A DNA stretch of 64,000 bases. Origin: Patescibacteria group bacterium. Lineage in GTDB: Bacteria; Patescibacteriota; Minisyncoccia; Ryanbacterales; GWA2-47-10b. The stretch covers positions 18,079 through 82,078 of the forward strand of contig JBBTSE010000007.1 in assembly GCA_038064855.1 (NCBI GenBank), written 5' to 3'. Positions 7,486 to 53,747 of the stretch are shown here, in pieces. The notes below the pieces were generated by a model. It saw only the letters and a list, made by a program, of their open reading frames with translations, did no database searches and was not told the origin of the DNA. Made by a program: the position numbers and the translations under genes. Numbering within the stretch: position 1 is the stretch's first letter; each line of letters starts with the position of its first letter.

Positions 7486-7709
7486 GTGGGTGGCGGGCTG
7501 TGATGCTGGCGAAAGTTTTCGCGCGTGGTGATGGTGCGCTCGAGTTTGCACGATAGGCAACGCTCGCGCGTGCGGACCTCGTCCCACTTCGCGTAGAGGC
7601 GGCCGAGCCCTGCGATCTCCGAATCTTCGGCGTGGCTGATGCGTTGCATGGAGACGACGCGCATATCGTGATAGCCGTTGGGCGAGCACGGTTTTTTGGT
7701 TCTCATCAT
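7482..7709 (-). CDS. small hypothetical protein with Cys pair and CxxC (possible zinc ribbon), GC-rich
   Basis: SD GAAGGGAG 4 nt upstream of ATGATG. 75 aa. Confidence 0.45.
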   Translation of the reverse strand: MMRTKKPCSPNGYHDMRVVSMQRISHAEDSEIAGLGRLYAKWDEVRTRERCLSCKLERTITTRENFRQHHSPPPT

Positions 7710-7812
7710 GTACTCCCTTCTTTTCTATTCGTAAGATTTTTTGACTAAAAAGTCAATCTCTTGCATAATTTCTTCTTTGCCCGTTTTTCTAGGTCATGCA
7801 ATACTATAAGTA

Positions 7813-8167: not shown

Positions 8168-10069
8168 ATGTATCGAGTACTTGATAGTCGTATCATCGTA
8201 GTTGCGCTCGCATGTTCTGTTTTTCTTTTTGCTGCGTTTGTAGGTTGGCGGTATGATATCTATCTTTCGGCGGTTGATGCTGGTCTTGCAGAAGTATTGA
8301 GTAGTACTGTATCTGAGGATGTAGCAGAGATGAGTGCTCTCGCGGCCGATGATGTACCGGTGACATTCGCGCCACTAGCCGCATCAGTGTTGCCCAGCAA
8401 GTATCCGAGTTTCGCGGTTAAATTTTCTGATAGCGTACTTAAACAATACCCAGTGCCCGATAGCGGCACGGTGAGTGATATAGATATCGACGCTACAGTC
8501 ATTCGCGCAGGGCGTGACCAGTGGCAACTTACGCTAAAGACTAAAGTGCGCACAATCAACCAAGTGTATTTCCCATGGGAGATGACACGCAATCCACTTA
8601 GTTCTGATCCTCTGCGCGCCGATACCGTTATTTACCATACGCTTATGTTGGGTGCGGCCCAGCAAGACAAAGGCCTCATCGAGTGGGGTTGGCAGGGTTG
8701 GGAATATCCAGGGCCTACCTATGCGCCACTGTTAGTCGCAGCCAATGATATTGAGGCAAAGATTCTTGCTGCCGCAAATTGGCCTCCGCGCACTGTCACG
8801 CCACTCTATTCGCTCAACCGTATGGTGTTGCGCTATGAGCAAGACGTACCACTCAATACGCCGACCACATACTCTGCTTTGATAGCAAAAGTAAAAAAGA
8901 AGAAGACGGCGGGTGCTGCAGAACCTTGGCAGACAGCGCTCGATAAATATCGCACGTGGCTTGACCGTCAATTGAAAATCGCGAGAATCGAAAAACCAAC
9001 ATATCCTGATTGGATCAATAATTCACACGGCTGGATTAATGTACAGCTTGAAAATCGTACCGCGTTTAATAGCAACGATCTCCAGACTCTTTGGAATAAA
9101 ACTCACAAATATTTTCCTTGGATGCAGTTTTGGGGTCAGATGAGTACCTACGCAGGGCCGCCACAGTATGCGGTGCCGCCACCATTGCCGGGCGAATTGG
9201 TCGGTTGTTGTATTGATATGAGTCAGATGCACTCTCGTTATCTTCCTACGCTGCCGACATTTGCGGCATCGACCACGGCGGCTGGTGGACGCATAGGATA
9301 TTATTCACGGCCACATTTGATTACCGAGGGTGGTCCACTCTTTAATCCTGATGGTACGGAAAATACTGCCAACACCGCGCATCTTCTTGATTGGGTTGCG
9401 CGCAATCGCGACGAGTATAAGGCCAATGCACATTATCTCGATATTTACGCGCGTCAAGATTTTGGCGACATGCTCTCTGTCGCGCGCCTATTGCAAGATC
9501 GGTTGCCCGCAGAGTCTGTCATCGAGGGCGTGCACGATATCTATCCGCGCGCATTTTTGATCAGCGGTTTTGTAAACGACGCAAACGATACGATCGATCC
9601 TGCCGGAACGCGCACGCGCTTTCCGAGTTTTGGGCGTTACTTACTCAATAGTCAGCCGATGTTTTTGGGGGAGTCAAACGGTGGCCACGCGTATTGGGGG
9701 GTGGCGAATAGTTATGTTTTAGAACGCCAAGCATTTTTACTCGGCGCGAAACTCGACATCATGCGTCCATTTGAGACAGGTCAGGAAGTAGCTGGAGTAC
9801 TCAATGTGGCGGTACAAATGATCGTTGAAAAACGCAATGAAAAAAACTGGTGGGCGCGCAACCCTGTCTATATGTACCGTGTCGGTATTTCTAATATTCC
9901 CGCAGGCGTTGATGTTAGACACTTCAAAGGCAAGAGTAGAGAAGATTTATTCGTGATTGATAACTGGCAACAGCAAGTAGGTCTTTCGTTTACCTATAAA
10001 AATCGCCCGCTCGCAATTCCTACCGACAAGCTCTCAATCCTTGTCTGGCGTGGCGGCAAGCTTGAGTAA
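8168..10069 (+). CDS. hypothetical membrane-anchored Trp-rich extracellular protein
   Basis: N-terminal TM. 633 aa. No family recognised. Confidence 0.5.
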   Translation: MYRVLDSRIIVVALACSVFLFAAFVGWRYDIYLSAVDAGLAEVLSSTVSEDVAEMSALAADDVPVTFAPLAASVLPSKYPSFAVKFSDSVLKQYPVPDSGTVSDIDIDATVIRAGRDQWQLTLKTKVRTINQVYFPWEMTRNPLSSDPLRADTVIYHTLMLGAAQQDKGLIEWGWQGWEYPGPTYAPLLVAANDIEAKILAAANWPPRTVTPLYSLNRMVLRYEQDVPLNTPTTYSALIAKVKKKKTAGAAEPWQTALDKYRTWLDRQLKIARIEKPTYPDWINNSHGWINVQLENRTAFNSNDLQTLWNKTHKYFPWMQFWGQMSTYAGPPQYAVPPPLPGELVGCCIDMSQMHSRYLPTLPTFAASTTAAGGRIGYYSRPHLITEGGPLFNPDGTENTANTAHLLDWVARNRDEYKANAHYLDIYARQDFGDMLSVARLLQDRLPAESVIEGVHDIYPRAFLISGFVNDANDTIDPAGTRTRFPSFGRYLLNSQPMFLGESNGGHAYWGVANSYVLERQAFLLGAKLDIMRPFETGQEVAGVLNVAVQMIVEKRNEKNWWARNPVYMYRVGISNIPAGVDVRHFKGKSREDLFVIDNWQQQVGLSFTYKNRPLAIPTDKLSILVWRGGKLE

Positions 10070-44947: not shown

Positions 44948-45042
44948 GCCTTTCAGTTGTAACTTGATTTTTCGTGTTCCAAAACCATAGATCCCAGTAA
45001 GTCCTAGCCAAAAGGCAGGCATGGGAAGAAGGAGGAGAAAAG

Positions 45043-46110
45043 ATGCAGACGAAGTTTGTGGTGTGGGCGTTCACGCTGTTCGCGACGCTCATCGGTGTGA
45101 ACTGGGCGTTCAGTCTCTTGAGCGCCAAGAGCGACATCCAAGTGTTGCTCGGGTTCGCGCTCATCGTGGTCATCGTGGCGCTCTGGCTGCCGCGCGGTCG
45201 CAAAGCGGCGGCCCGCGGGCTCGAGTATCTCAAGGAGTACTTGAGTGTCGCGCTCATCATCACGGCCGTCGGCATGATGGGCGGATGCACGCGCATCGAG
45301 CCCGGTCACGTGGGCATCGTGGTCAACCAGATGGGGTCGGAAAAGGGGGTGCAAGACTATACCGCCCAGACCGGCGTCATCTGGTACAATCCGGCCACGC
45401 AGGATGTCCTCGAGTACCCAACCTTCGTCCAGACCGCGGTCTGGACGCACAACACGCAGGAGGGTAGTCCGAACAACGAGGAGATCATCTTCTCGGACAA
45501 GGACGGCCTCGCCATCGCGATCGACCTTTCGATCTCGTGGTACCTCGACGCGGCCAAGGTCCCGTCGTTCTACGTGAAGTTCAGGTCGGACGATCTGGAG
45601 ACCTTCACGCACGGGTTCCTGCGGAATGTGGCGCGTGATCACTTCAATGATGTCGGCCCGCTCTATGGTGCCGAGCAGCACATGGGCGTCAAGCGCGAAG
45701 AGTTCATGCTCGCTGTCAGGAAGCGGGTCAATGACCAGCTCGCGCAGTACGGCGTGGTCATCGAGCAGTTCGGTGTGATCGGTGCGCCGCGTCCGCCCGA
45801 AGCCGTCACCACCGCGCTCAACGCGAAGGTGAAGGCGACGCAGGATGCGATCCGTGTCGAGAACGAGCTCCGGCAGGAAACGGCCGAGGCTCAAAAGGCG
45901 GTCGCCAAGGCAAACGGCACGGCGGCCGCGCGGCTCTTGAATGCCAAGGCGGAAGCCGAGGCAAACTTGCTCGTGGCGAAGTCGATTACGCCCGAGCTCA
46001 TCCAGTGGCGCGCCATCGAGAAGTGGAATGGCGCCCGCCCTATGGTGGAGGGGGTGGGGAGTGGGATGATCTTACAGATCCCACCACTGTCAGCTCCCGC
46101 CGCGAAGTAG
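45043..46110 (+). CDS. SPFH/band-7 (prohibitin/flotillin-like) domain membrane protein, GC-rich (>60%)
   Basis: Two N-terminal TMs then SPFH core. Strong SD. Confidence 0.75.
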   Translation: MQTKFVVWAFTLFATLIGVNWAFSLLSAKSDIQVLLGFALIVVIVALWLPRGRKAAARGLEYLKEYLSVALIITAVGMMGGCTRIEPGHVGIVVNQMGSEKGVQDYTAQTGVIWYNPATQDVLEYPTFVQTAVWTHNTQEGSPNNEEIIFSDKDGLAIAIDLSISWYLDAAKVPSFYVKFRSDDLETFTHGFLRNVARDHFNDVGPLYGAEQHMGVKREEFMLAVRKRVNDQLAQYGVVIEQFGVIGAPRPPEAVTTALNAKVKATQDAIRVENELRQETAEAQKAVAKANGTAAARLLNAKAEAEANLLVAKSITPELIQWRAIEKWNGARPMVEGVGSGMILQIPPLSAPAAK

Positions 46111-46144: not shown

Positions 46145-46198
46145 AGCCCTCGGTAAGAAATGCGCGCAGCGCAAATCTTGCCGAGGGCTGTTTTTTAT
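46145..46198. terminator. bidirectional terminator between convergent genes
   Basis: AGCCCTCGG...CCGAGGGCT followed by GTTTTTTATT. Confidence 0.7.
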
Positions 46199-47190
46199 TC
46201 AGCTTTTAGATATCGCTCAAAGGGTTTATCGAGCGCGTAGAGTTTATCGCGCGCTGCGCGGTCGCAAGCGGCACGGAGTGGCTCACCAAAATATTTACAT
46301 GCCTCTATCGCGCGTGCTTCGTGCGCGTCTGCTAGTTTTTCGATAACACCCTCAATACATACGATTTTGTCATCTAAATCTCCAGCGTTGCAGATGCTTG
46401 GCAAAAGATCGGGGTAGTTCTCGACGGTGCCCATATACATAAACCCAAGTCCGCGAAAACATCCGCGTCGCTGGAGGCCGGGGAGTGCGAGGCATTTTTC
46501 GGATGCTTCCCCAAAACTTTTCGTCTTGCCAATAAAGTGCCGCGCTTTGTAGGTCCAGCATACGGCTGTGTAGGGCGTGGTGTCGTCGCACACAAGGTCG
46601 TATTTATTCATATCAAACTCCATATAGGTGCCTCCCGCGCAGTAAAATTTGAGCGGCAGGGTAGGGAATGATTCGCAGAGCGGCAACGCGATGTCAGGGC
46701 GATAGTCAGCAAGATAGGTAAACGCATGTCCGATGCCATGGGCACAGTTGCCTGGCCGATGGTCTTGCGCGGTCGCACAAATATCGCTTACTTTGGCGGA
46801 GAGGTCCGCGAGCTTTATATGTTGGCCATCTTTGATGCCAGCGGCGTTGTCAGCGCCAAGTGCCGCCATGAGTACGCCATGAAAACATCCTTCGGTACAT
46901 GATTTACCACACTCGCGAAATGCTTCGCCTATATCTTTGGTATGCGCGTAGACCACTTTACCGAGTTCGTGTGTCTGCCCATGGCAAATACCTGAGGTAC
47001 TTTCGATAGCTGTTGCCATTTGATTTGCAGTGAGTTTGCCATAATACTTCTCAAAAAGGGCATGATGCTCACTCGGCGACGCATCACGAAACTCTTGGGT
47101 AAAAAACGCTAGTGTATTGGCGTACCAAAAAAAGGACGCAAGGGCGCCCAGAGTTGTGAGTATCATCGTACCAACAAGCAATCTCCGCAT
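46195..47190 (-). CDS. Cys/His-rich secreted protein with repeated C-x-H-G-x-G motifs
   Basis: N-terminal TM/signal. ICHGQTH, CFHGVLMA, CAHGIGHA, CFRGLGF repeats. About 19 Cys. Confidence 0.6.
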   Translation of the reverse strand: MRRLLVGTMILTTLGALASFFWYANTLAFFTQEFRDASPSEHHALFEKYYGKLTANQMATAIESTSGICHGQTHELGKVVYAHTKDIGEAFRECGKSCTEGCFHGVLMAALGADNAAGIKDGQHIKLADLSAKVSDICATAQDHRPGNCAHGIGHAFTYLADYRPDIALPLCESFPTLPLKFYCAGGTYMEFDMNKYDLVCDDTTPYTAVCWTYKARHFIGKTKSFGEASEKCLALPGLQRRGCFRGLGFMYMGTVENYPDLLPSICNAGDLDDKIVCIEGVIEKLADAHEARAIEACKYFGEPLRAACDRAARDKLYALDKPFERYLKAE

Positions 47191-47282
47191 GTCATTATCC
47201 GTAGCGTATTTTTGCCGGCACGGCAATCATGTGACTTTTTATCAACAAGGGGTTTTTGTTTGTACCTTGCTATACTAATGGC

Positions 47283-49208
47283 ATGGAAGAAAGCCAAAAG
47301 ACGCGCCTTCCGCTTCTTGTCCTTACCGTTATTTTGACAGCAGTGTTTGCCATCGGGCTCCGATGGGTGTTTTTCGCGTCTCCCTCGACCGATAGCGCCT
47401 TCTTCTATTTGTATGACTATGCGGTGGGTCTTACTATGATCTTTTTGCCGTGTACGCTGCCGCTCGCGTTTGTGGTGGTACCACTCGCGATGGGCAAAGG
47501 CTATATACGAGGTATTGGTATTGCGGCCGCTTTTGCCGCGGGCGTGACGCTCACACTCAGTTTTTACGGAGCGTTGTTAGGTGCCATCGGTCAGACATTT
47601 TTGGGCAGTGCTGAGACGGCAAAAAATTGGATGTATATGTTTGCGGGCGCCATGGGGCTTTTGTTTGCATTTCATGATATTGGTTTGCGTGGGTTCAAGA
47701 TGCCAACCTACAGTGGCGCGTTTCCTGACTTTATCCAAAAACAACAAGAATTTGTAAAAGCGTTTTTACTCGGACTCTTTTTGGGCAATGTGGGCGTGGG
47801 GTGCCCCAATCCGCTTTTCAATGGTGTCATAATCCCGCAGATTTTGGTGAGCGGCAGCGCGTTTCAGGGGTGGCTCATCATGGTAGTACAGGCGCTCGGG
47901 CGCGTGACGCCACTCTTTATACTGACTTTTTATGCAATTTTGGGCGTAAACGCCACCGGATTTTTGGTAAAACACCGCACCAAAGTCGAGAAATCAACTG
48001 GTTGGGCAATGATCTTTATCGCGGGTTTTCTCTTTACCCTCGGTACTTTTACTCATGATTGGTATGTCTATTCAGGCATTCATACATACCTAGAGAGCGT
48101 GACGCAAGAGGAGGCGATTACGACCATTTTAGGGTCAAATATAGGCAAACTCGGCCATGCGCATGAAGCTCCTCCCCCCGGTAATCTATGGATTGGGAGT
48201 TATATAATGGTGACTATTTGGCTTGTGCCGTTTGTCTGGCTTTGGTTACGCAAGCGCCGCGAGGCATATGCGGCACCTGAGGCGGAGCGAGATCATAAGA
48301 TACACGACTCGCGTACCTATCTCAGTTTTATCGTTTGGCTTGCAGTCGGTCTTTATACGCTTTTTGGATGGGTACTACCGCACAATTTCCAATTTCATAC
48401 GAAGCATATGGATATGGCGACAGTTTTCAATAGCAGTGTGAATACTGATCCTATCATGTCTAAGCCGGGCGAGATGACAAAGATATCAATTGCGCTCAAA
48501 GATGAAAAAGGTTTGCCCCTTCAAGATCTCAAAGAAGAGCACGAGCGTTTGATACATGTCATCATTGTCTCCGAAGATTTGAAGACCTTTATGCATGTTC
48601 ACCCTGATGATTTTGGACCAATCACCGACGAGATGCGCGCCAAGGGAGAGTTTCCGATATATGTTACATTCCCAAGGGCCGGTACCTATTCACTCGCGAC
48701 CGGATTTTCGCATAAAAATCACGAGGGCACCGTGCGCAATACTATAACTGTTGTAGGTGGCAAGCCAGAACCAGTAGCGATTGTAAAAAATATCATGCGC
48801 GAAGAAAAGTTCAAAGGATTCGCTGTCAGTCTCAAGACAAATCCAGATCAAATCCAGTCAGGCGTGCCCGCACACCTCGAATATACGATGACTGACGATA
48901 GCGGTAAGCCAGTGGGCGATATGGTCTCATATCTCGGCGCGCCCATGCATCTGGCTATTTGGAGCTATGACCTTGGCTATTTCCTCCATACACACGGTGA
49001 AGTACCGGGCTATGGTCACCAGGTGCCCGCAGATGCGTCATTTGGTCCTATGATCGATGCACATACCGCTTTCCCGTATCCGGGGCTTTATCGTGTATTT
49101 GCGCAGTTCTCGCGTGATGGCGATGTTTACACCACTACCTTTGATATCGCGGTTACCCAAGGACCCGAAGGTGCCACCATGATGGAGGCAGGTGCGCATA
49201 ACCACTAA
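47283..49208 (+). CDS. CcdA/DsbD-like thiol:disulfide transporter domain fused to tandem His-rich periplasmic domains
   Basis: FLPCTLPLAF and GVGCPNPLF mirror CcdA SPCCLPL / TPCVGPVL. C-terminal repeats LIHVIIVSED..FMHVHP and MHLAIWSYD..FLHTHG. Confidence 0.6.
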   Translation: MEESQKTRLPLLVLTVILTAVFAIGLRWVFFASPSTDSAFFYLYDYAVGLTMIFLPCTLPLAFVVVPLAMGKGYIRGIGIAAAFAAGVTLTLSFYGALLGAIGQTFLGSAETAKNWMYMFAGAMGLLFAFHDIGLRGFKMPTYSGAFPDFIQKQQEFVKAFLLGLFLGNVGVGCPNPLFNGVIIPQILVSGSAFQGWLIMVVQALGRVTPLFILTFYAILGVNATGFLVKHRTKVEKSTGWAMIFIAGFLFTLGTFTHDWYVYSGIHTYLESVTQEEAITTILGSNIGKLGHAHEAPPPGNLWIGSYIMVTIWLVPFVWLWLRKRREAYAAPEAERDHKIHDSRTYLSFIVWLAVGLYTLFGWVLPHNFQFHTKHMDMATVFNSSVNTDPIMSKPGEMTKISIALKDEKGLPLQDLKEEHERLIHVIIVSEDLKTFMHVHPDDFGPITDEMRAKGEFPIYVTFPRAGTYSLATGFSHKNHEGTVRNTITVVGGKPEPVAIVKNIMREEKFKGFAVSLKTNPDQIQSGVPAHLEYTMTDDSGKPVGDMVSYLGAPMHLAIWSYDLGYFLHTHGEVPGYGHQVPADASFGPMIDAHTAFPYPGLYRVFAQFSRDGDVYTTTFDIAVTQGPEGATMMEAGAHNH

Positions 49209-49213
49209 TTTTT

Positions 49214-49393
49214 ATGGATATTTTCGGAATACTTTGGGCGGCATCGCTTTTGTTTTTTATAGTAGGCCCGTCACTTGCTGGCATTGCATTTCGTAAAAAG
49301 AAAATAACACTCGTGCAGGCGTTGATCGCAGGTCTTTTAGCGCTCACTATATCTGCAGCATTAATCTGGTCACTTATCGTATTTAGTGTTTAG
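49214..49393 (+). CDS. small two-TM membrane protein, 59 aa
   Basis: MDIFGILWAASLLFFIVGPSLAGIAFRKKKITLVQALIAGLLALTISAALIWSLIVFSV. Below the ORF-track cutoff. Confidence 0.4.
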   Translation: MDIFGILWAASLLFFIVGPSLAGIAFRKKKITLVQALIAGLLALTISAALIWSLIVFSV

Positions 49394-49401
49394 AATGGCA
49401 T

Positions 49402-50160
49402 ATGCCTGGATTTGAAGGACGCCCCACCCTCGGTTTCCATCTTGAACAAAAGCCCGAGATACGACCTCAATACAAAGCAGAACTCAAGGCGCTTTTACGC
49501 TTGGAGCAAGCTTTGCGTCATCCAGAAATGCCTGATGCCGTGCGTGGTTTTGAGGGGATTAAGGTAGGCAACGCGATTTTGAAAGAAAAAGGAGTATCAG
49601 GCGTGCTGATAGGCGGCCTTGCCGAGGCCGTATGGCGCTCTGCGAGGCCGCAGGATCTCGCGCGTCGCAAAGATACCGATATTTTGGTACTGACTCCAGA
49701 TGCCGAGCTTGAAGATTTTGAAGGCGGTATTGACTGGTGGACGCGTAAAGAAGAGCATCTTGAAGTGAGTGGTGAGTTTGGTAAGAGCACAGGACCCATT
49801 AGATGGTGGGAAAATGCCAATGGAATCGTGCTCGGTTTTCGTCCCGAGGTGACCGGTGAGCTCGAGTCAGGTCTTTATGTATTGTCTCCCGAAGAGGTCA
49901 TCTCGATGCGTCTCAATGAAACGACAGCTCAACTTGGCAATGCCGATGTAGAGCAGGAGTCACTCGCGCTTTTTGAGACAGCAATACTAAAGCGTCTTGG
50001 TAGGCAGCTCATGGTGCCAGAGGTTGCTGATGCCGTTGGGGGTAGAATCTTATCGCAAGGACACGGGTATCGTAAAGCTCAAGATACCGAAATAAAAAGC
50101 TTCCGTATGCCTACTGCAGACTACGGAGCTATCAAAAAGTTTAAAGAAGGAAGCGAGTAG
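49402..50160 (+). CDS. hypothetical protein (possible nucleotidyltransferase-fold)
   Basis: GVLIGGLAEAVW...DTDILVL. No firm family. Confidence 0.45.
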   Translation: MPGFEGRPTLGFHLEQKPEIRPQYKAELKALLRLEQALRHPEMPDAVRGFEGIKVGNAILKEKGVSGVLIGGLAEAVWRSARPQDLARRKDTDILVLTPDAELEDFEGGIDWWTRKEEHLEVSGEFGKSTGPIRWWENANGIVLGFRPEVTGELESGLYVLSPEEVISMRLNETTAQLGNADVEQESLALFETAILKRLGRQLMVPEVADAVGGRILSQGHGYRKAQDTEIKSFRMPTADYGAIKKFKEGSE

Positions 50161-50163
50161 GGG

Positions 50164-50382
50164 CTACTTTGCTGTAGCTGAATAGCCGAGCTCGGAGACC
50201 GATTTTTGGATTTGCTCTACGGTCACTTTTGAATCATCAAACTCTACTTCACCTGATTTGGTGTCCCAGCTCACTGAGGCGTTTTGAATACCGTCTTGGG
50301 TTGAAAGGACCATTTGGATACCCGCCGCACATGAGCCACAATGCATACCACCTACATCAAATTGTTTTTTTACGATTGCCAT
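50164..50382 (-). CDS. copZ: copper chaperone CopZ (HMA domain)
   Basis: GMHCGSCAAGIQ. Confidence 0.85.
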   Translation of the reverse strand: MAIVKKQFDVGGMHCGSCAAGIQMVLSTQDGIQNASVSWDTKSGEVEFDDSKVTVEQIQKSVSELGYSATAK

Positions 50383-50396
50383 ATAGAGTTATGGTA

Positions 50397-52796
50397 CTAC
50401 GCCGTTTTTTCTCGTGCAATCTTGGGTTCACGAAAGTATTTCAGAAGTAAAGAGTTGCCTACTACCGATACCGAGCTAAACGCCATAGCAAAGCCGGCAT
50501 ATTCAGGTTTGAGAAAGGCATTAAACGCACTCTTGCCCCATGGGAGACTGGCGACAAAGGCAGGATAATTTTGCCCGATATAGAAGAGAAGACCTGCCGC
50601 CAGCGGAATACCCACGATGTTATAAATAAACGCCCAGAAAAGATTTTGCCAAATCTTGCGAATCGTTTTGCGTGAGAGATCGAGCGCTGTGACAATATCA
50701 CGCAAGTCATCTTTGATCAGCACAATACTACCAGTCTCGATTGCCACATCAGTACCGGAGCCGACAGCGATGCCCACCTCGGCTTGTGCGAGAGCGGGGG
50801 AGTCGTTCACTCCGTCACCAACCATAGCTACTTTCTTCCCTTGGCGCTGGAGTTCTTTGATCACTTCTTCTTTTTTCTCTGGTAATACTTTTGCCATGAC
50901 GCGATCAATACCCACCATCTTGGCGATGGCTTCTGCGGTTTTTTGGTTATCACCTGTGATCATGATGATTTCAAGACCGCGTTTTTTGAGCTCGGCAATA
51001 GTTTCCTTGGCGTGTTCTTTGAGCGTATCAGCCATAGCGAGAACTCCTATCAGCTTACCGTCGTAGGCGATAAAGACGGCGGTCTTCGCTTCGTCCTGCA
51101 GGCGATCCAAGTCTTTCTCGCCCGCGATATAATCAATGTTCATCGATTTCATCATTTCGTCATTGCCGACGAGAACTACCTTACCTTCATAAAGAGCTGA
51201 AACTCCTTTGCCTGAAACGTTTTTGAACTCTTTGGGTTCCGGGGGGTTCAAATCTTTGGCGGCTTTCACTACCGCTTGGGCGAGCGGATGTTCTGATCCG
51301 CGCTCAGCAGTTGCCGCAATCTTAAGCACCTCATCGCGTGACATCCCGCCCATGGGAACTACATCAGTAACTGATAGCTCACCTTTTGTGAGCGTACCTG
51401 TTTTATCAAATGCTATAGCATTGAGCGAGCGGGTTTTTTCGAGCGCCTCACCACCTTTGAGGAGTACGCCAAACTCGGCACCACGCCCCGTACCTACCAT
51501 GATGGCGGTTGGCGTCGCCAGACCCATCGCGCACGGACACGAGATCACAAGCACAGAGACAGCGGCCAAGAGTGCGACAGCAATAATCTTGCCCGCGATG
51601 TAATACCAATAGAAGAATGACAAGAGTGCAATGACTACTATAGTAGGTACAAAGTATTCAGATACCCTGTCAGTAAAGTCTTGGATAGGAGCACGAGCGC
51701 TTTGCGCCTCTTCTACCATCTTTACGATCTGATGAAGGAGTGTATCTTTACCTACTTTGGATGCGCGGCATTTGAGGAGCCCGTAGCTATTTACAGTTGC
51801 TCCGATGACCTGATCGCCAGCTTTTTTATTGACGGGGATTGACTCTCCGGTGATGATTTTCTCGTCGATAGCCGTCTCACCCTCAATAACTAAGCCATCA
51901 GTAGCTACTTTTTCACCCGGTTTTACCAAAAATACATCGCCAATCTGGATGTCCCCAATCTTTACCGTGACTTCTTTGCCATCTCGGATGACGATAGCGT
52001 CTTGAGGGGCGAGTTTTAAGAGTTTGCGGATAGCGCTCGATGCCTGACCTTTGGCTCGGGCTTCAAAGTAGCGGCCAAGAATAAGAAACGATATGAGTGC
52101 GGCAGAAGATTCCCAATACGGGTGGCTCAATCCTTGCCATAGTTGTTGGTAAAAGAATGAGTCAGGGCTAAGTTTGAATGTCATCGAGAAGAAAAATCCA
52201 AATGCCGACAGAAGATACGCGGTAGTGGTTCCCAATACCACGAGTACATCCATATTGGTCGATCCTACGCGTAGCGCGGTAAAGGCGTTGCGGTAGAATG
52301 GCCATGCCACAAAAAACTGGATGGGTGTGGTCATGATGAGGTATACCCAATTGAGATCTATGAAGGTGCCATTGGTGCACGCGCCATCGATAACTTTGAT
52401 GATCGCATCACCACCGGCGCAAAGTGCATGGCCGTGTTGGAGATTGAGCATATGCACCGCCATATAGTAGAGAATAATGGGGGTAGCGAGCAGAAACGAA
52501 ATAATCGTGCGATTACGCAGGTGCAGTATCTCTGCCAAGCGGTGTTTTTCTACTTCTTCCTCTTCGAGGGCGCCCTCTTTGGGTACGATAAGCCCATAGC
52601 CCAGTTTTTTGAGAAGGCCCCGTATTGCCTCGAGTGTGATGGTGGTGGGGTCATATTCGACGATGAGGCGCTCTGAGCTGTAGTTTGCGTTTGCCTTGGT
52701 GACGCCCTTTTGCGCTGAAAGAATTTTATTGATGAGTACTTGGCAGTTTGCGCAGTGCATGCCCTGTACTCGATAACTTTGACGAATGGTTGCCAT
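50397..52796 (-). CDS. copA: copper-translocating P1B-type ATPase
   Basis: N-terminal HMA GMHCANC. CPC. DKTGTLT. GDGVNDSPAL. Confidence 0.9.
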   Translation of the reverse strand: MATIRQSYRVQGMHCANCQVLINKILSAQKGVTKANANYSSERLIVEYDPTTITLEAIRGLLKKLGYGLIVPKEGALEEEEVEKHRLAEILHLRNRTIISFLLATPIILYYMAVHMLNLQHGHALCAGGDAIIKVIDGACTNGTFIDLNWVYLIMTTPIQFFVAWPFYRNAFTALRVGSTNMDVLVVLGTTTAYLLSAFGFFFSMTFKLSPDSFFYQQLWQGLSHPYWESSAALISFLILGRYFEARAKGQASSAIRKLLKLAPQDAIVIRDGKEVTVKIGDIQIGDVFLVKPGEKVATDGLVIEGETAIDEKIITGESIPVNKKAGDQVIGATVNSYGLLKCRASKVGKDTLLHQIVKMVEEAQSARAPIQDFTDRVSEYFVPTIVVIALLSFFYWYYIAGKIIAVALLAAVSVLVISCPCAMGLATPTAIMVGTGRGAEFGVLLKGGEALEKTRSLNAIAFDKTGTLTKGELSVTDVVPMGGMSRDEVLKIAATAERGSEHPLAQAVVKAAKDLNPPEPKEFKNVSGKGVSALYEGKVVLVGNDEMMKSMNIDYIAGEKDLDRLQDEAKTAVFIAYDGKLIGVLAMADTLKEHAKETIAELKKRGLEIIMITGDNQKTAEAIAKMVGIDRVMAKVLPEKKEEVIKELQRQGKKVAMVGDGVNDSPALAQAEVGIAVGSGTDVAIETGSIVLIKDDLRDIVTALDLSRKTIRKIWQNLFWAFIYNIVGIPLAAGLLFYIGQNYPAFVASLPWGKSAFNAFLKPEYAGFAMAFSSVSVVGNSLLLKYFREPKIAREKTA

Positions 52797-52873: not shown

Positions 52874-53281
52874 ATGGGTAACAAATATATCATTTTTCTT
52901 TTATTTGGAGCGCTTTTGATTGGTAGCGGCATTGTCTACGAAAAGTATTACCGTCCGAAAGATGTTGGAGCTGTCGCGTGGGATGGTGTGACGGTACTTG
53001 AGCGCAATATGATATCACTCGCAGACAAATGGCGGTTTGAGCCCAACACGCTTGAGACTAAACGCGGAGCCAAGGTGATTTTGCATATCTATAATCAAGA
53101 TATCTATGATCATGGCATCGGCATTGATAACTTCGCCGTCAATGAACGCCTTTTCCCCAAGAGTACGACAACCGTGACATTTATTGCTTCAGAAAAAGGG
53201 GAGTTTCAATTTTATTGCTCGGTCGCTTGTGGCGATGGTCATTATGACCAAATAGGCAAGCTCATCGTCCACGAGGAGTAG
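52874..53281 (+). CDS. membrane-anchored cupredoxin-fold protein with CuA-like FYCSVACGDGHYDQ motif
   Basis: TM anchor. H...C...C..H..(M/Q) spacing like cytochrome oxidase subunit II CuA. Confidence 0.55.
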   Translation: MGNKYIIFLLFGALLIGSGIVYEKYYRPKDVGAVAWDGVTVLERNMISLADKWRFEPNTLETKRGAKVILHIYNQDIYDHGIGIDNFAVNERLFPKSTTTVTFIASEKGEFQFYCSVACGDGHYDQIGKLIVHEE

Positions 53282-53747
53282 GACGATCGTTACCCAACAG
53301 AAATACCGCAAAGCCAGCGGCGGCAAGCCCCACATCACGGTAGAGATCAGGAGTCAGTTTAAGTCCTTTAAAGTTTACATACGCTACAAAAATAGTGGTT
53401 ATCATACCGCCCGCAAGAAAGCCAGCAAGACGCACCTGAATACCGGTGATGAGCGCGAGCGCTATGAGTGCTTCTAAAATACCTGTATAAAAATTGAGAG
53501 GCCGTGAGAGCTCACGCCCTATGCCAAAGAGTTGTTCGATCTCGGCGGCTCCTTGCCCTGCGCTTGCTGGTGTAAGTTTATGAATCGCAAAAAGTATAAA
53601 AACAACGGCAAGCCCAAGCCGTAGAATGATGGGTGCAAGCCATGAGAGTTTTCTACCAATATTGTTAAACCGTTCCATAAGAGTAAGTATATATGGAAAA
53701 TCACTGTATATCGTGTGGATAAGATATGCATAGCTTGTGGAGTGCAC
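53262..53747 (-). CDS. DoxX family membrane protein
   Basis: LRLGLAVVFILFAIHKL and four TMs. Confidence 0.7.
   Translation of the reverse strand: MHSTSYAYLIHTIYSDFPYILTLMERFNNIGRKLSWLAPIILRLGLAVVFILFAIHKLTPASAGQGAAEIEQLFGIGRELSRPLNFYTGILEALIALALITGIQVRLAGFLAGGMITTIFVAYVNFKGLKLTPDLYRDVGLAAAGFAVFLLGNDRPTPRGR

Follow-up and report, generated by a model that had tools for sequence, protein, structure and literature searches.

A CcdA/DsbD-type membrane protein with YtkA-like domains at the centre of a conserved copper gene cluster in Patescibacteria

Introduction

What does a membrane protein of the CcdA/DsbD type do when it carries His-rich domains behind its transmembrane core? This question is raised by a locus in a 64,000-nucleotide stretch of a Patescibacteria genome (assembly GCA_038064855.1, contig JBBTSE010000007.1, positions 18,079 to 82,078 of the forward strand), which we call the window and which matches contigs out of Hainich groundwater metagenomes. 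Two genes diverge here from an intergenic region at 47191..47282 (no strand assigned). The plus gene (47283..49208, plus strand) encodes a CcdA/DsbD-type membrane protein with two YtkA-like domains, 641 aa long when counted from its ATG, in an open reading frame (ORF) that reaches back to a TTG at 47256. The minus gene (46195..47190, minus strand) encodes a membrane-anchored Cys/His-rich all-alpha repeat protein of 331 aa from M13, in an ORF that extends to a TTG at 47226. Both ORFs are found in the window's ORF list where an initial annotation, made from the letters and their ORFs, had placed them, and public gene calls start both genes later than the ORFs used there. Residues of the plus protein are numbered below from the TTG at 47256 (the ORF limit) and not from the ATG at 47283.

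The initial annotation had taken the pair for a periplasmic redox or metal-handling module. The metal-handling setting is supported, and the metal is specifically copper. The object of interest, moreover, exceeds the pair: it is a Patescibacteria-wide conserved copper cluster centred on the CcdA-YtkA fusion. The best reading of the plus gene, to which we assign a probability of about 0.5, is that of a thiol-reducing, copper-delivering maturation device for a CuA-type cupredoxin.

A DsbD/CcdA core with an invariant outer His/Glu cluster

The plus gene encodes a membrane protein of the DsbD/CcdA family, and a copper-specialised member of it found in Patescibacteria. The best database match to its product is 100% identical and is named Patescibacteria group bacterium; the identical protein is encoded by three public contigs (L001–L003). 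A word-indexed search returned 232 homologues, most of them from Patescibacteria and many labelled "cytochrome c biogenesis protein CcdA". When one genome per species was scanned, relatives turned up in at least 335 species-level genomes, almost all of them labelled Patescibacteria; of the 335 loci found, 80 were examined for their gene neighbourhoods.

The transmembrane (TM) core (aa 10–380; 47283..48395, plus strand) consists of an extra N-terminal TM helix, a six-TM DsbD-like core and two further TM helices. The two motifs noted at the outset, LPCTLPL and GCPNPLF, are both present in it. Their cysteines, C66 (LPCTLP; 47451..47453, plus strand) and C183 (GCPNP; 47802..47804, plus strand), are invariant in an alignment of 102 homologues, and the only other Cys of the protein is C5, upstream of the public ATG start. 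Comparison by hhalign of the 102-homologue profile with Escherichia coli DsbD (probability 74.6%, E 2.7e-5) pairs C66 with the Cys of TPCVLP and C183 with that of SPC, which together are the catalytic pair of DsbD. The Pfam model DsbD_TM is matched by 29 of 38 full-length homologues (best E 3e-12, several above the 27.1-bit cutoff). The CcdA/DsbD-like core with paired Cys, proposed from the sequence, therefore holds, with the qualification that the plus protein of the window itself gave no DsbD_TM match in the Pfam scan.

The AlphaFold2 model of the plus protein (predicted local distance difference test score, pLDDT, 88.8) has nine TM helices followed by two beta-sandwiches, in agreement with the two C-terminal beta-domains of the initial annotation. 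Helix breaks fall at residues 64–67 in TM1 and 177–185 in TM4, that is, at both Cys. After TM6 the chain forms two short helices before it returns to the last two TM helices. The segment that follows TM6 (aa 267–303; 48054..48164, plus strand) is marked by the invariant alignment columns H267, S273, G274, H276, E280, E285, H301 and H303, with D268 conserved in at least 90% of the sequences. The distribution of Lys and Arg, read by the positive-inside rule and the topology of DsbD, suggests that this segment and the C-terminal domains face the outside. Sequence and profile searches of the PDB with the plus protein found nothing; a match to Claudin-3 in the PDB search was dismissed as noise of TM composition.

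In several respects the core conforms to the CcdA/DsbD families (PF02683, DsbD_TM; PF13386, DsbD_2): it has two invariant Cys, each in a motif flanked by Pro where TM1 or TM4 is broken, a gene for a cytoplasmic CxxC partner lies near it in most lineages, and the predicted topology would place the N-terminus of TM1 outside. It departs from them by the addition of three TM helices, by the invariant outer His/Glu cluster, which canonical CcdA lacks, and by the absence of a thioredoxin-fold acceptor either as a domain or as a neighbour. Furthermore, it is fused to domains of the copper-chaperone or multicopper-oxidase type, and it is embedded in a copper cluster in hosts that almost never have heme-copper oxidases (PMC7507113). 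A role in cytochrome c biogenesis was rejected, as the conserved synteny is with copper genes; among the window ORFs scanned, none is a cytochrome c or a System I/II gene. The database name "cytochrome c biogenesis protein CcdA" thus fits the plus gene poorly.

Tandem YtkA-like domains and family variants

The first C-terminal beta-sandwich (aa 388–502; 48417..48761, plus strand) is of the YtkA/CtaK type, as delimited by a Pfam match in a homologue, by the model strands at 392–499 and by conservation. The second (aa 512–638; 48789..49169, plus strand) is YtkA-like by its hhalign match to the first, with model strands at 516–634. Each carries one of the H-x-H-P/G motifs that had been picked out from the sequence, HVHP at 447–450 and HTHG at 578–581. 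YtkA had been one of the candidate families named at the outset, and it proved correct: domain 1 of the homologue P0037 (45% identical) scores 31.2 bits against the Pfam cutoff of 25.9, and YtkA (PF13115) is matched by five of the 38 homologues at E ≤0.01. The plus protein of the window gave no YtkA match in the same scan. The two domains are homologous to each other (hhalign probability 99.6%, E 1e-23) and have in common the motif H-x6-D-x5-H-x-H, domain 2 being a duplicate of domain 1. The conserved residues are H429, H434, D441, H447 and H449 in domain 1 and H565, D572, H578 and H580 in domain 2; H434/H447/H449 and H565/H578/H580 are invariant in the 102 sequences. These His residues, together with the outer His/Glu cluster of the core, may be a means of binding copper.

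YtkA is the same protein as CtaK, a lipoprotein that is required for CuA assembly in Bacillus subtilis when copper is scarce, and a YtkA domain is also fused to the copper importer YcnJ, the function of which overlaps that of CtaK (PMC13344008, PMC9145763). The domains described here are like YtkA/CtaK in being membrane-attached extracytoplasmic beta-sandwiches with conserved His, and, as proposed, in their association with a CuA-type client; YcnJ, with its CopC-CopD-YtkA architecture, is a precedent for YtkA fused to a copper-handling membrane protein (PMC13344008, PMC9145763). Unlike in YcnJ, the YtkA domain is tandemly duplicated and sits on a DsbD-type core instead of CopD. The motif differs as well: it reads H-x4-H ... 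F-x-H-x-H with no conserved Met noted, and the ligands of CtaK include H118.

The family is not uniform in its C-terminal part. A multicopper oxidase takes the place of the YtkA pair in P0078, P0079, P0084, P0090 and P0093, and short forms of 360–400 aa have no appended domain. Both Cys and the outer cluster of His and Glu are retained in every multicopper-oxidase-fused form and in every short form.

The plus gene belongs to a conserved copper cluster

Downstream of the plus gene, the window encodes a CopZ-like heavy-metal-associated (HMA) copper chaperone of 72 aa with the motif MHCGSC (50164..50382, minus strand; Pfam HMA, E 5.8e-17), a P1B ATPase of the CopA type that has a CPC motif and, at its N-terminus, an HMA domain (50397..52796, minus strand; Pfam E1-E2_ATPase, Hydrolase and HMA) and a membrane-anchored CuA-type cupredoxin of 135 aa with the motifs YDHG ... 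CSVACGDGH..Q (52874..53281, plus strand; Pfam Cupredoxin_1). This company is kept across the 80 loci examined. In 66 of them, the CcdA-YtkA gene has a CopA homologue no more than 3 kb away (downstream in 63 of 70 matches), and a homologue of the window cupredoxin is found in 67, usually directly downstream and on the same strand. Typically just upstream of the plus gene, 62 loci have a gene for a cytoplasmic CxxC protein of about 88 aa without signal peptide, which is Thioredoxin_3-like (the name is from locus L009). CopA and CopZ, the CuA-type cupredoxin and the cytoplasmic CxxC protein make up the conserved company of the plus gene.

The closest relative of the window cupredoxin, by both sequence match and ligand alignment, is the CuA domain of subunit II of Thermus thermophilus ba3 oxidase (PDB 2cua and 1ehk_B; E 2e-13 to 1e-10). 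The two proteins share the ligands His, Cys, Cys and His in the alignment, and Gln stands where the Thermus domain has its axial Met. Matches to the CuA domains of NosZ and CoxB were also obtained. In contrast to the Thermus protein, the cupredoxin stands alone, with no subunit I partner present: no heme-copper oxidase subunit I was found among the window ORFs scanned, and Patescibacteria almost never have a heme-copper oxidase (PMC7507113).

A DoxX/MauE-family small membrane protein (53262..53678, minus strand; Pfam DoxX and MauE) is encoded on the opposite strand with an overlap of the 3′ end of the cupredoxin gene. Matches to it by tblastn were seen in 13 of the 80 loci, and in the Levybacteria locus L009 (2579..3472) a DoxX and a cupredoxin domain are fused in one protein of 297 aa.

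A proposed role in CuA maturation, and its alternatives

The two Cys of a CuA site must stay reduced, a task that TlpA fulfils in Bradyrhizobium, and CcdA carries reducing equivalents through the membrane (PMC9145763, PMC6669012). From homology, conservation, the topology model and synteny, we infer electron flow, copper binding and a client for the plus protein as follows. The cytoplasmic CxxC thioredoxin-like protein would pass reducing equivalents to the two membrane-embedded Cys, which would relay them to the outer face of the membrane. There, the His/Glu cluster and the two CtaK/YtkA-type domains would bind copper that is exported by the adjacent CopA, itself presumably fed by CopZ. The client would most likely be the CuA-type cupredoxin of the same cluster, the ligand Cys of which would be kept reduced and then loaded with copper. 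We propose, in short, that the plus protein may work like CcdA/DsbD combined with CtaK. Because the cluster holds a donor, a relay, chaperone-type domains, a client, and a pump with its chaperone, every role in CuA maturation finds a candidate in a compact set of genes.

The proposed logic is that of TlpA, ScoI and PcuC in Bradyrhizobium, where the two CuA Cys are reduced before a chaperone delivers the copper (PMC6669012, PMC9145763). It differs in that homologues of TlpA, Sco and PCuAC were not encountered in the cluster. A single membrane polypeptide would instead merge the reductant role of CcdA/DsbD plus TlpA or Sco with the chaperone role of CtaK or PCuAC, and the client would be a stand-alone cupredoxin rather than an oxidase subunit. 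If so, a thiol-reducing conduit and copper-chaperone domains in one polypeptide would be a compact model of how reduction and metallation are coupled in CuA assembly. In the literature searched, YtkA and DsbD were not found mentioned together, and no description of this architecture or of its copper cluster was found.

Several observations weigh against this maturation role. On the side of the core, the plus protein of the window stays under the Pfam cutoff for DsbD_2 (22 versus 24.9 bits), and a Foldseek search of the PDB gave only generic immunoglobulin-like matches, with no superposition on CcdA. On the side of the electron path, the gene for the CxxC donor is found neither in the 64-kb window nor in the closest relatives (L011–L013), and clustering of the ORFs of the 80 loci revealed no conserved extracytoplasmic thioredoxin-fold acceptor near the plus gene. 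The acceptors that are the norm for DsbD/CcdA, of the ResA, CcmG, DsbC or DsbD gamma domain types, are thus missing, and the fused C-terminal domains are free of Cys. For this family, it would be unusual if the TM Cys pair reduced the cupredoxin directly. As to the client, 48 of the 67 cupredoxin homologues do not have the exact C-x3-C-x3-H spacing, which the other 19 have; those inspected among the 48 have eight extra residues ahead of the second His and retain H-x2-M, so a binuclear cupredoxin site is not certain. CopA and CopZ are classically genes of detoxification and efflux. Finally, a multicopper oxidase offers no Cys pair for reduction, and fusions to it argue for a core that is directed at copper.

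This last argument leads to the alternative that fares best, which is nonetheless only about half as probable as the maturation role. Here the TM core itself would handle copper, either as a thioredoxin-driven cupric reductase that takes Cu(II) at the outer His/Glu residues or as a conduit for Cu(I) by way of the membrane Cys. In either version Cu(I) would be loaded onto a fused or adjacent cuproprotein domain (YtkA, multicopper oxidase or cupredoxin). The absence of an outer acceptor, the multicopper-oxidase variants and the invariant His and Glu residues together favour this possibility. Six of these residues (H267, H276, E280, E285, H301 and H303) do not vary in 102 sequences, the cluster and both Cys are retained whether the C-terminal module is a multicopper oxidase or missing altogether, and the fused modules seen are all of cuproprotein type, YtkA-like or multicopper oxidase. 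The wider LysE/DsbD superfamily includes transporters of metal ions. A localised cupric reductase has also been discussed as a requirement of oxidase biogenesis (PMC13344008). Against these points, the Cys motifs and the alignment with DsbD fit a thiol-disulfide relay, and CopA in the same cluster already exports Cu(I). No member of the DsbD family is known to us to reduce or transport copper, though no literature search was aimed at this point.

It is unlikely that the cluster serves defence against copper stress and not biogenesis. According to this explanation the core would keep surface thiols reduced under copper-catalysed oxidation, as DsbD and Scs do in enterobacteria, the YtkA domains and the cupredoxin would buffer or oxidise extracellular copper, and CopA and CopZ would pump copper out. 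The tight linkage of the plus gene to CopA and CopZ is what one would expect of such a system, and dsbD mutants are copper sensitive; in E. coli, dsbD adjoins cutA, which is annotated as a copper-binding protein. The near absence from Patescibacteria of a heme-copper oxidase in need of CuA (PMC7507113), and its absence among the scanned ORFs of the window, point in the same direction. Yet YtkA/CtaK is documented in assembly and not in buffering (PMC13344008, PMC9145763), the full set of CuA-type ligands in the cupredoxin suggests a redox centre rather than a sponge, and no isomerase or reductase of the thioredoxin fold that could serve general thiol repair is part of the cluster.

Whatever the mechanism, hundreds of Patescibacteria species with tiny genomes keep CopA, CopZ, a CuA-type cupredoxin, a CxxC protein and the CcdA-YtkA fusion. 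The cluster points to an unrecognised copper protein of the surface, for the maturation of which these cells pay.

The minus gene belongs to a large Cys/His-rich family

The product of the minus gene has an N-terminal hydrophobic anchor and a repeat region at aa 81–321 (46264..46986, minus strand). The signal anchor and the conserved repeat of the initial annotation were borne out, while its count of about 19 Cys was too high: there are 17 in the long ORF and 16 from M13. The repeat motif also had to be revised. Instead of four or five copies of C-x-H-G-x-G, the strict motif occurs once (CAHGIG) and C-x-H-G twice, and the true repeat is the looser C-x-x-G-x-[GLIYV], in six copies. The repeat is real, far beyond chance. 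When its conservation was checked in 120 representatives of at most 50% identity, 16 Cys were conserved at 93% or more and five His (H82, H86, H116, H163 and H167) at 98% or more.

The AlphaFold2 model of the minus protein is all helical (pLDDT 89.9; predicted template modelling score 0.85). In seven independent representatives C106 and C114 have both been replaced, a joint loss that is the signature of a disulfide, and most of the remaining Cys lie 10–11 residues apart across repeat junctions; about eight disulfides may thus be formed. The five invariant His fall in the first three repeats and include two H-x3-H pairs on helices; they could mark a metal site or an active site. The minus gene would accordingly seem to encode an extracytoplasmic, disulfide-stapled helical repeat protein with a putative five-His metal site.

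The family is large, uncharacterised and without a curated model. The minus protein has no match in Pfam or NCBIfam, and no Pfam family recurs across 21 family members at E values up to 1. There is no sequence match in the PDB even with a 103-sequence profile, and Foldseek gave no significant PDB fold match (best E 0.04, TM-score about 0.2). A word-indexed search brought up only 21 relatives. An exhaustive profile search, on the other hand, returned 6,102 cluster representatives at E ≤1e-3, of which 574 remain at E ≤1e-30; a further homologue search with a broad profile of the family found 13 proteins. The family loci span a GC content of 0.31–0.74. More than 6,000 sequence clusters therefore have a confidently predicted fold, no Pfam model and no solved relative.

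The nearest analogy is to the Helicobacter cysteine-rich proteins (Hcp) and Sel1-like repeats, which are likewise secreted alpha/alpha repeats with a Cys pair that bridges successive repeats at a spacing of about 7–11 residues and with a Gly-containing motif at helix starts. The five invariant His have no counterpart there, and a Sel1/Hcp identity was rejected since no Sel1 profile match was found in the 21 members at E up to 1. A LanC-like identity, suggested by the resemblance of GxxHGxxG-type motifs to CAHGIGH, has no supporting profile or fold match. An identity with the copper storage proteins (Csp), which likewise has no supporting profile or fold match, is opposed both by the model, which is a multi-repeat helical array and not a four-helix bundle, and by the joint loss of C106 and C114, which indicates a disulfide and not free thiolates.

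The architectures within the family vary. Giant proteins of 1,700–3,580 aa (P0142, P0208, P0225, P0228 and P0241) contain 7–13 tandem units of the Cys-rich core, and P0142 ends in a GH3 glycoside hydrolase with LRV/HEAT repeats. Fusions to TPR domains occur as well. In P0148 the Cys-rich module is followed by a C-terminal cytochrome c (CSSCH), and P0257 has it in alternation with cupredoxin-like domains that are rich in His and free of Cys (DHWPAS..HPTH..FHDH).

A bolder interpretation of both genes would make the nine-TM core a new functional type of the DsbD fold, which reduces Cu(II) outside the cytoplasm at the expense of thioredoxin and loads the Cu(I), with the Cys pair acting on copper that the invariant outer His/Glu residues hold, and would make its Cys-rich neighbour a new and widespread family of disulfide-stapled five-His metalloproteins. 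We consider this combination improbable. If it were true, the core with CopA, CopZ and the stand-alone CuA cupredoxin would be a minimal surface pathway for copper and electrons in bacteria without respiratory chains, to which the five-His family would have been recruited in some Patescibacteria.

The divergent pair is not a conserved module

The initial annotation had envisaged an electron supply joined to a Cys/His-rich client. In such a module the CcdA-like protein would feed electrons to its neighbour, which would thereby be folded, isomerised or kept reduced. The pairing is seen again in L004, where the Cys-rich protein is 65% identical and the genes are still divergent. An independent Patescibacteria lineage, L032, has a distant family member that keeps all five His; there the Cys-rich gene is followed after 37 nt, on the same strand, by the CxxC gene, and then by the CcdA-YtkA gene and the cupredoxin gene. 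Two independent juxtapositions exceed the chance expectation for such a rare family, under the crude assumption of a uniform frequency. It is plausible, too, that 16 extracellular Cys need disulfide isomerisation, and cupredoxin-like or cytochrome c domains occur as fusion partners in part of the family.

The neighbourhoods nevertheless speak against a module. A relative of the Cys-rich gene is near the plus gene in only one of the 80 loci (L032), and the other 79 have none. The closest relatives L011 and L013 are without the gene, and in L012 it is deleted. Conversely, in 80 metagenome loci picked for the Cys-rich family, not one has a CcdA-YtkA, CopA or cupredoxin gene nearby, and there is no conserved neighbour of any kind, none recurring in more than six loci. 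Three other look-ups of Cys-rich neighbourhoods showed unrelated contexts or the same pairing in a close relative. A thioredoxin-fold intermediary is not present, and the promoter-proximal block of the plus gene is kept regardless of the gene upstream of it. With adjacency of the Cys-rich gene to the copper cluster confined to this lineage and one other lineage of Patescibacteria, we regard the electron-supply model as the least probable of all the explanations considered. The minus gene is not an obligate partner of the cluster but a facultative neighbour, and the slot that it occupies there is variable.

The promoter-proximal block consists of the 55 nt beside the plus ATG (47228..47282; GTGACTTTTTATCAACAAG...CTTGCTATACTAAT), which are kept in the window, L004, L011 and L012. 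As its conservation is independent of the upstream gene, the plus gene appears to carry its own promoter. The end of this promoter-like block is 3 nt short of the ATG at 47283, a distance that suggests a transcript with no leader or a very short one. Just upstream of the block, at 47212..47226, lies a perfect palindrome, TTGCCGGCACGGCAA, found in the window and L001–L003 only.

In L012, the plus protein of which is 84% identical, the last 21 codons of the Cys-rich gene are left (9209..9271), as are the last 20 codons of the gene for a secreted protein of 650 aa (7658..7717), both about 90% identical. These remnants are the scar of a deletion or replacement beside the copper cluster.

Other genes of the locus

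Two proteins of the window are encoded between the plus gene and copZ. A 59-aa ORF with two hydrophobic segments (49214..49393, plus strand), called as a gene in L001, lies directly 3′ of the plus gene; it has no significant family match, and ORFs 56–84% identical to it occupy the same position in L011–L013. Neither Pfam nor NCBIfam has a match to the 252-aa protein that follows (49402..50160, plus strand), and tblastn found none in any of the 80 loci.

On the other side of the pair, the segment 40429..44887 (plus strand) encodes an 834-aa secreted protein that contains SdrD_B and lamin-tail domains, and also the 650-aa secreted protein, which has no family match. Both genes accompany the Cys-rich gene in L004. 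Between them and the minus gene, a 296-aa ORF (45004..45894, minus strand) is antisense to an SPFH/Band-7 gene (45043..46110, plus strand). The public calls disagree here, as L001 has the antisense ORF and L002 the SPFH gene; a Pfam match exists for the SPFH reading alone.

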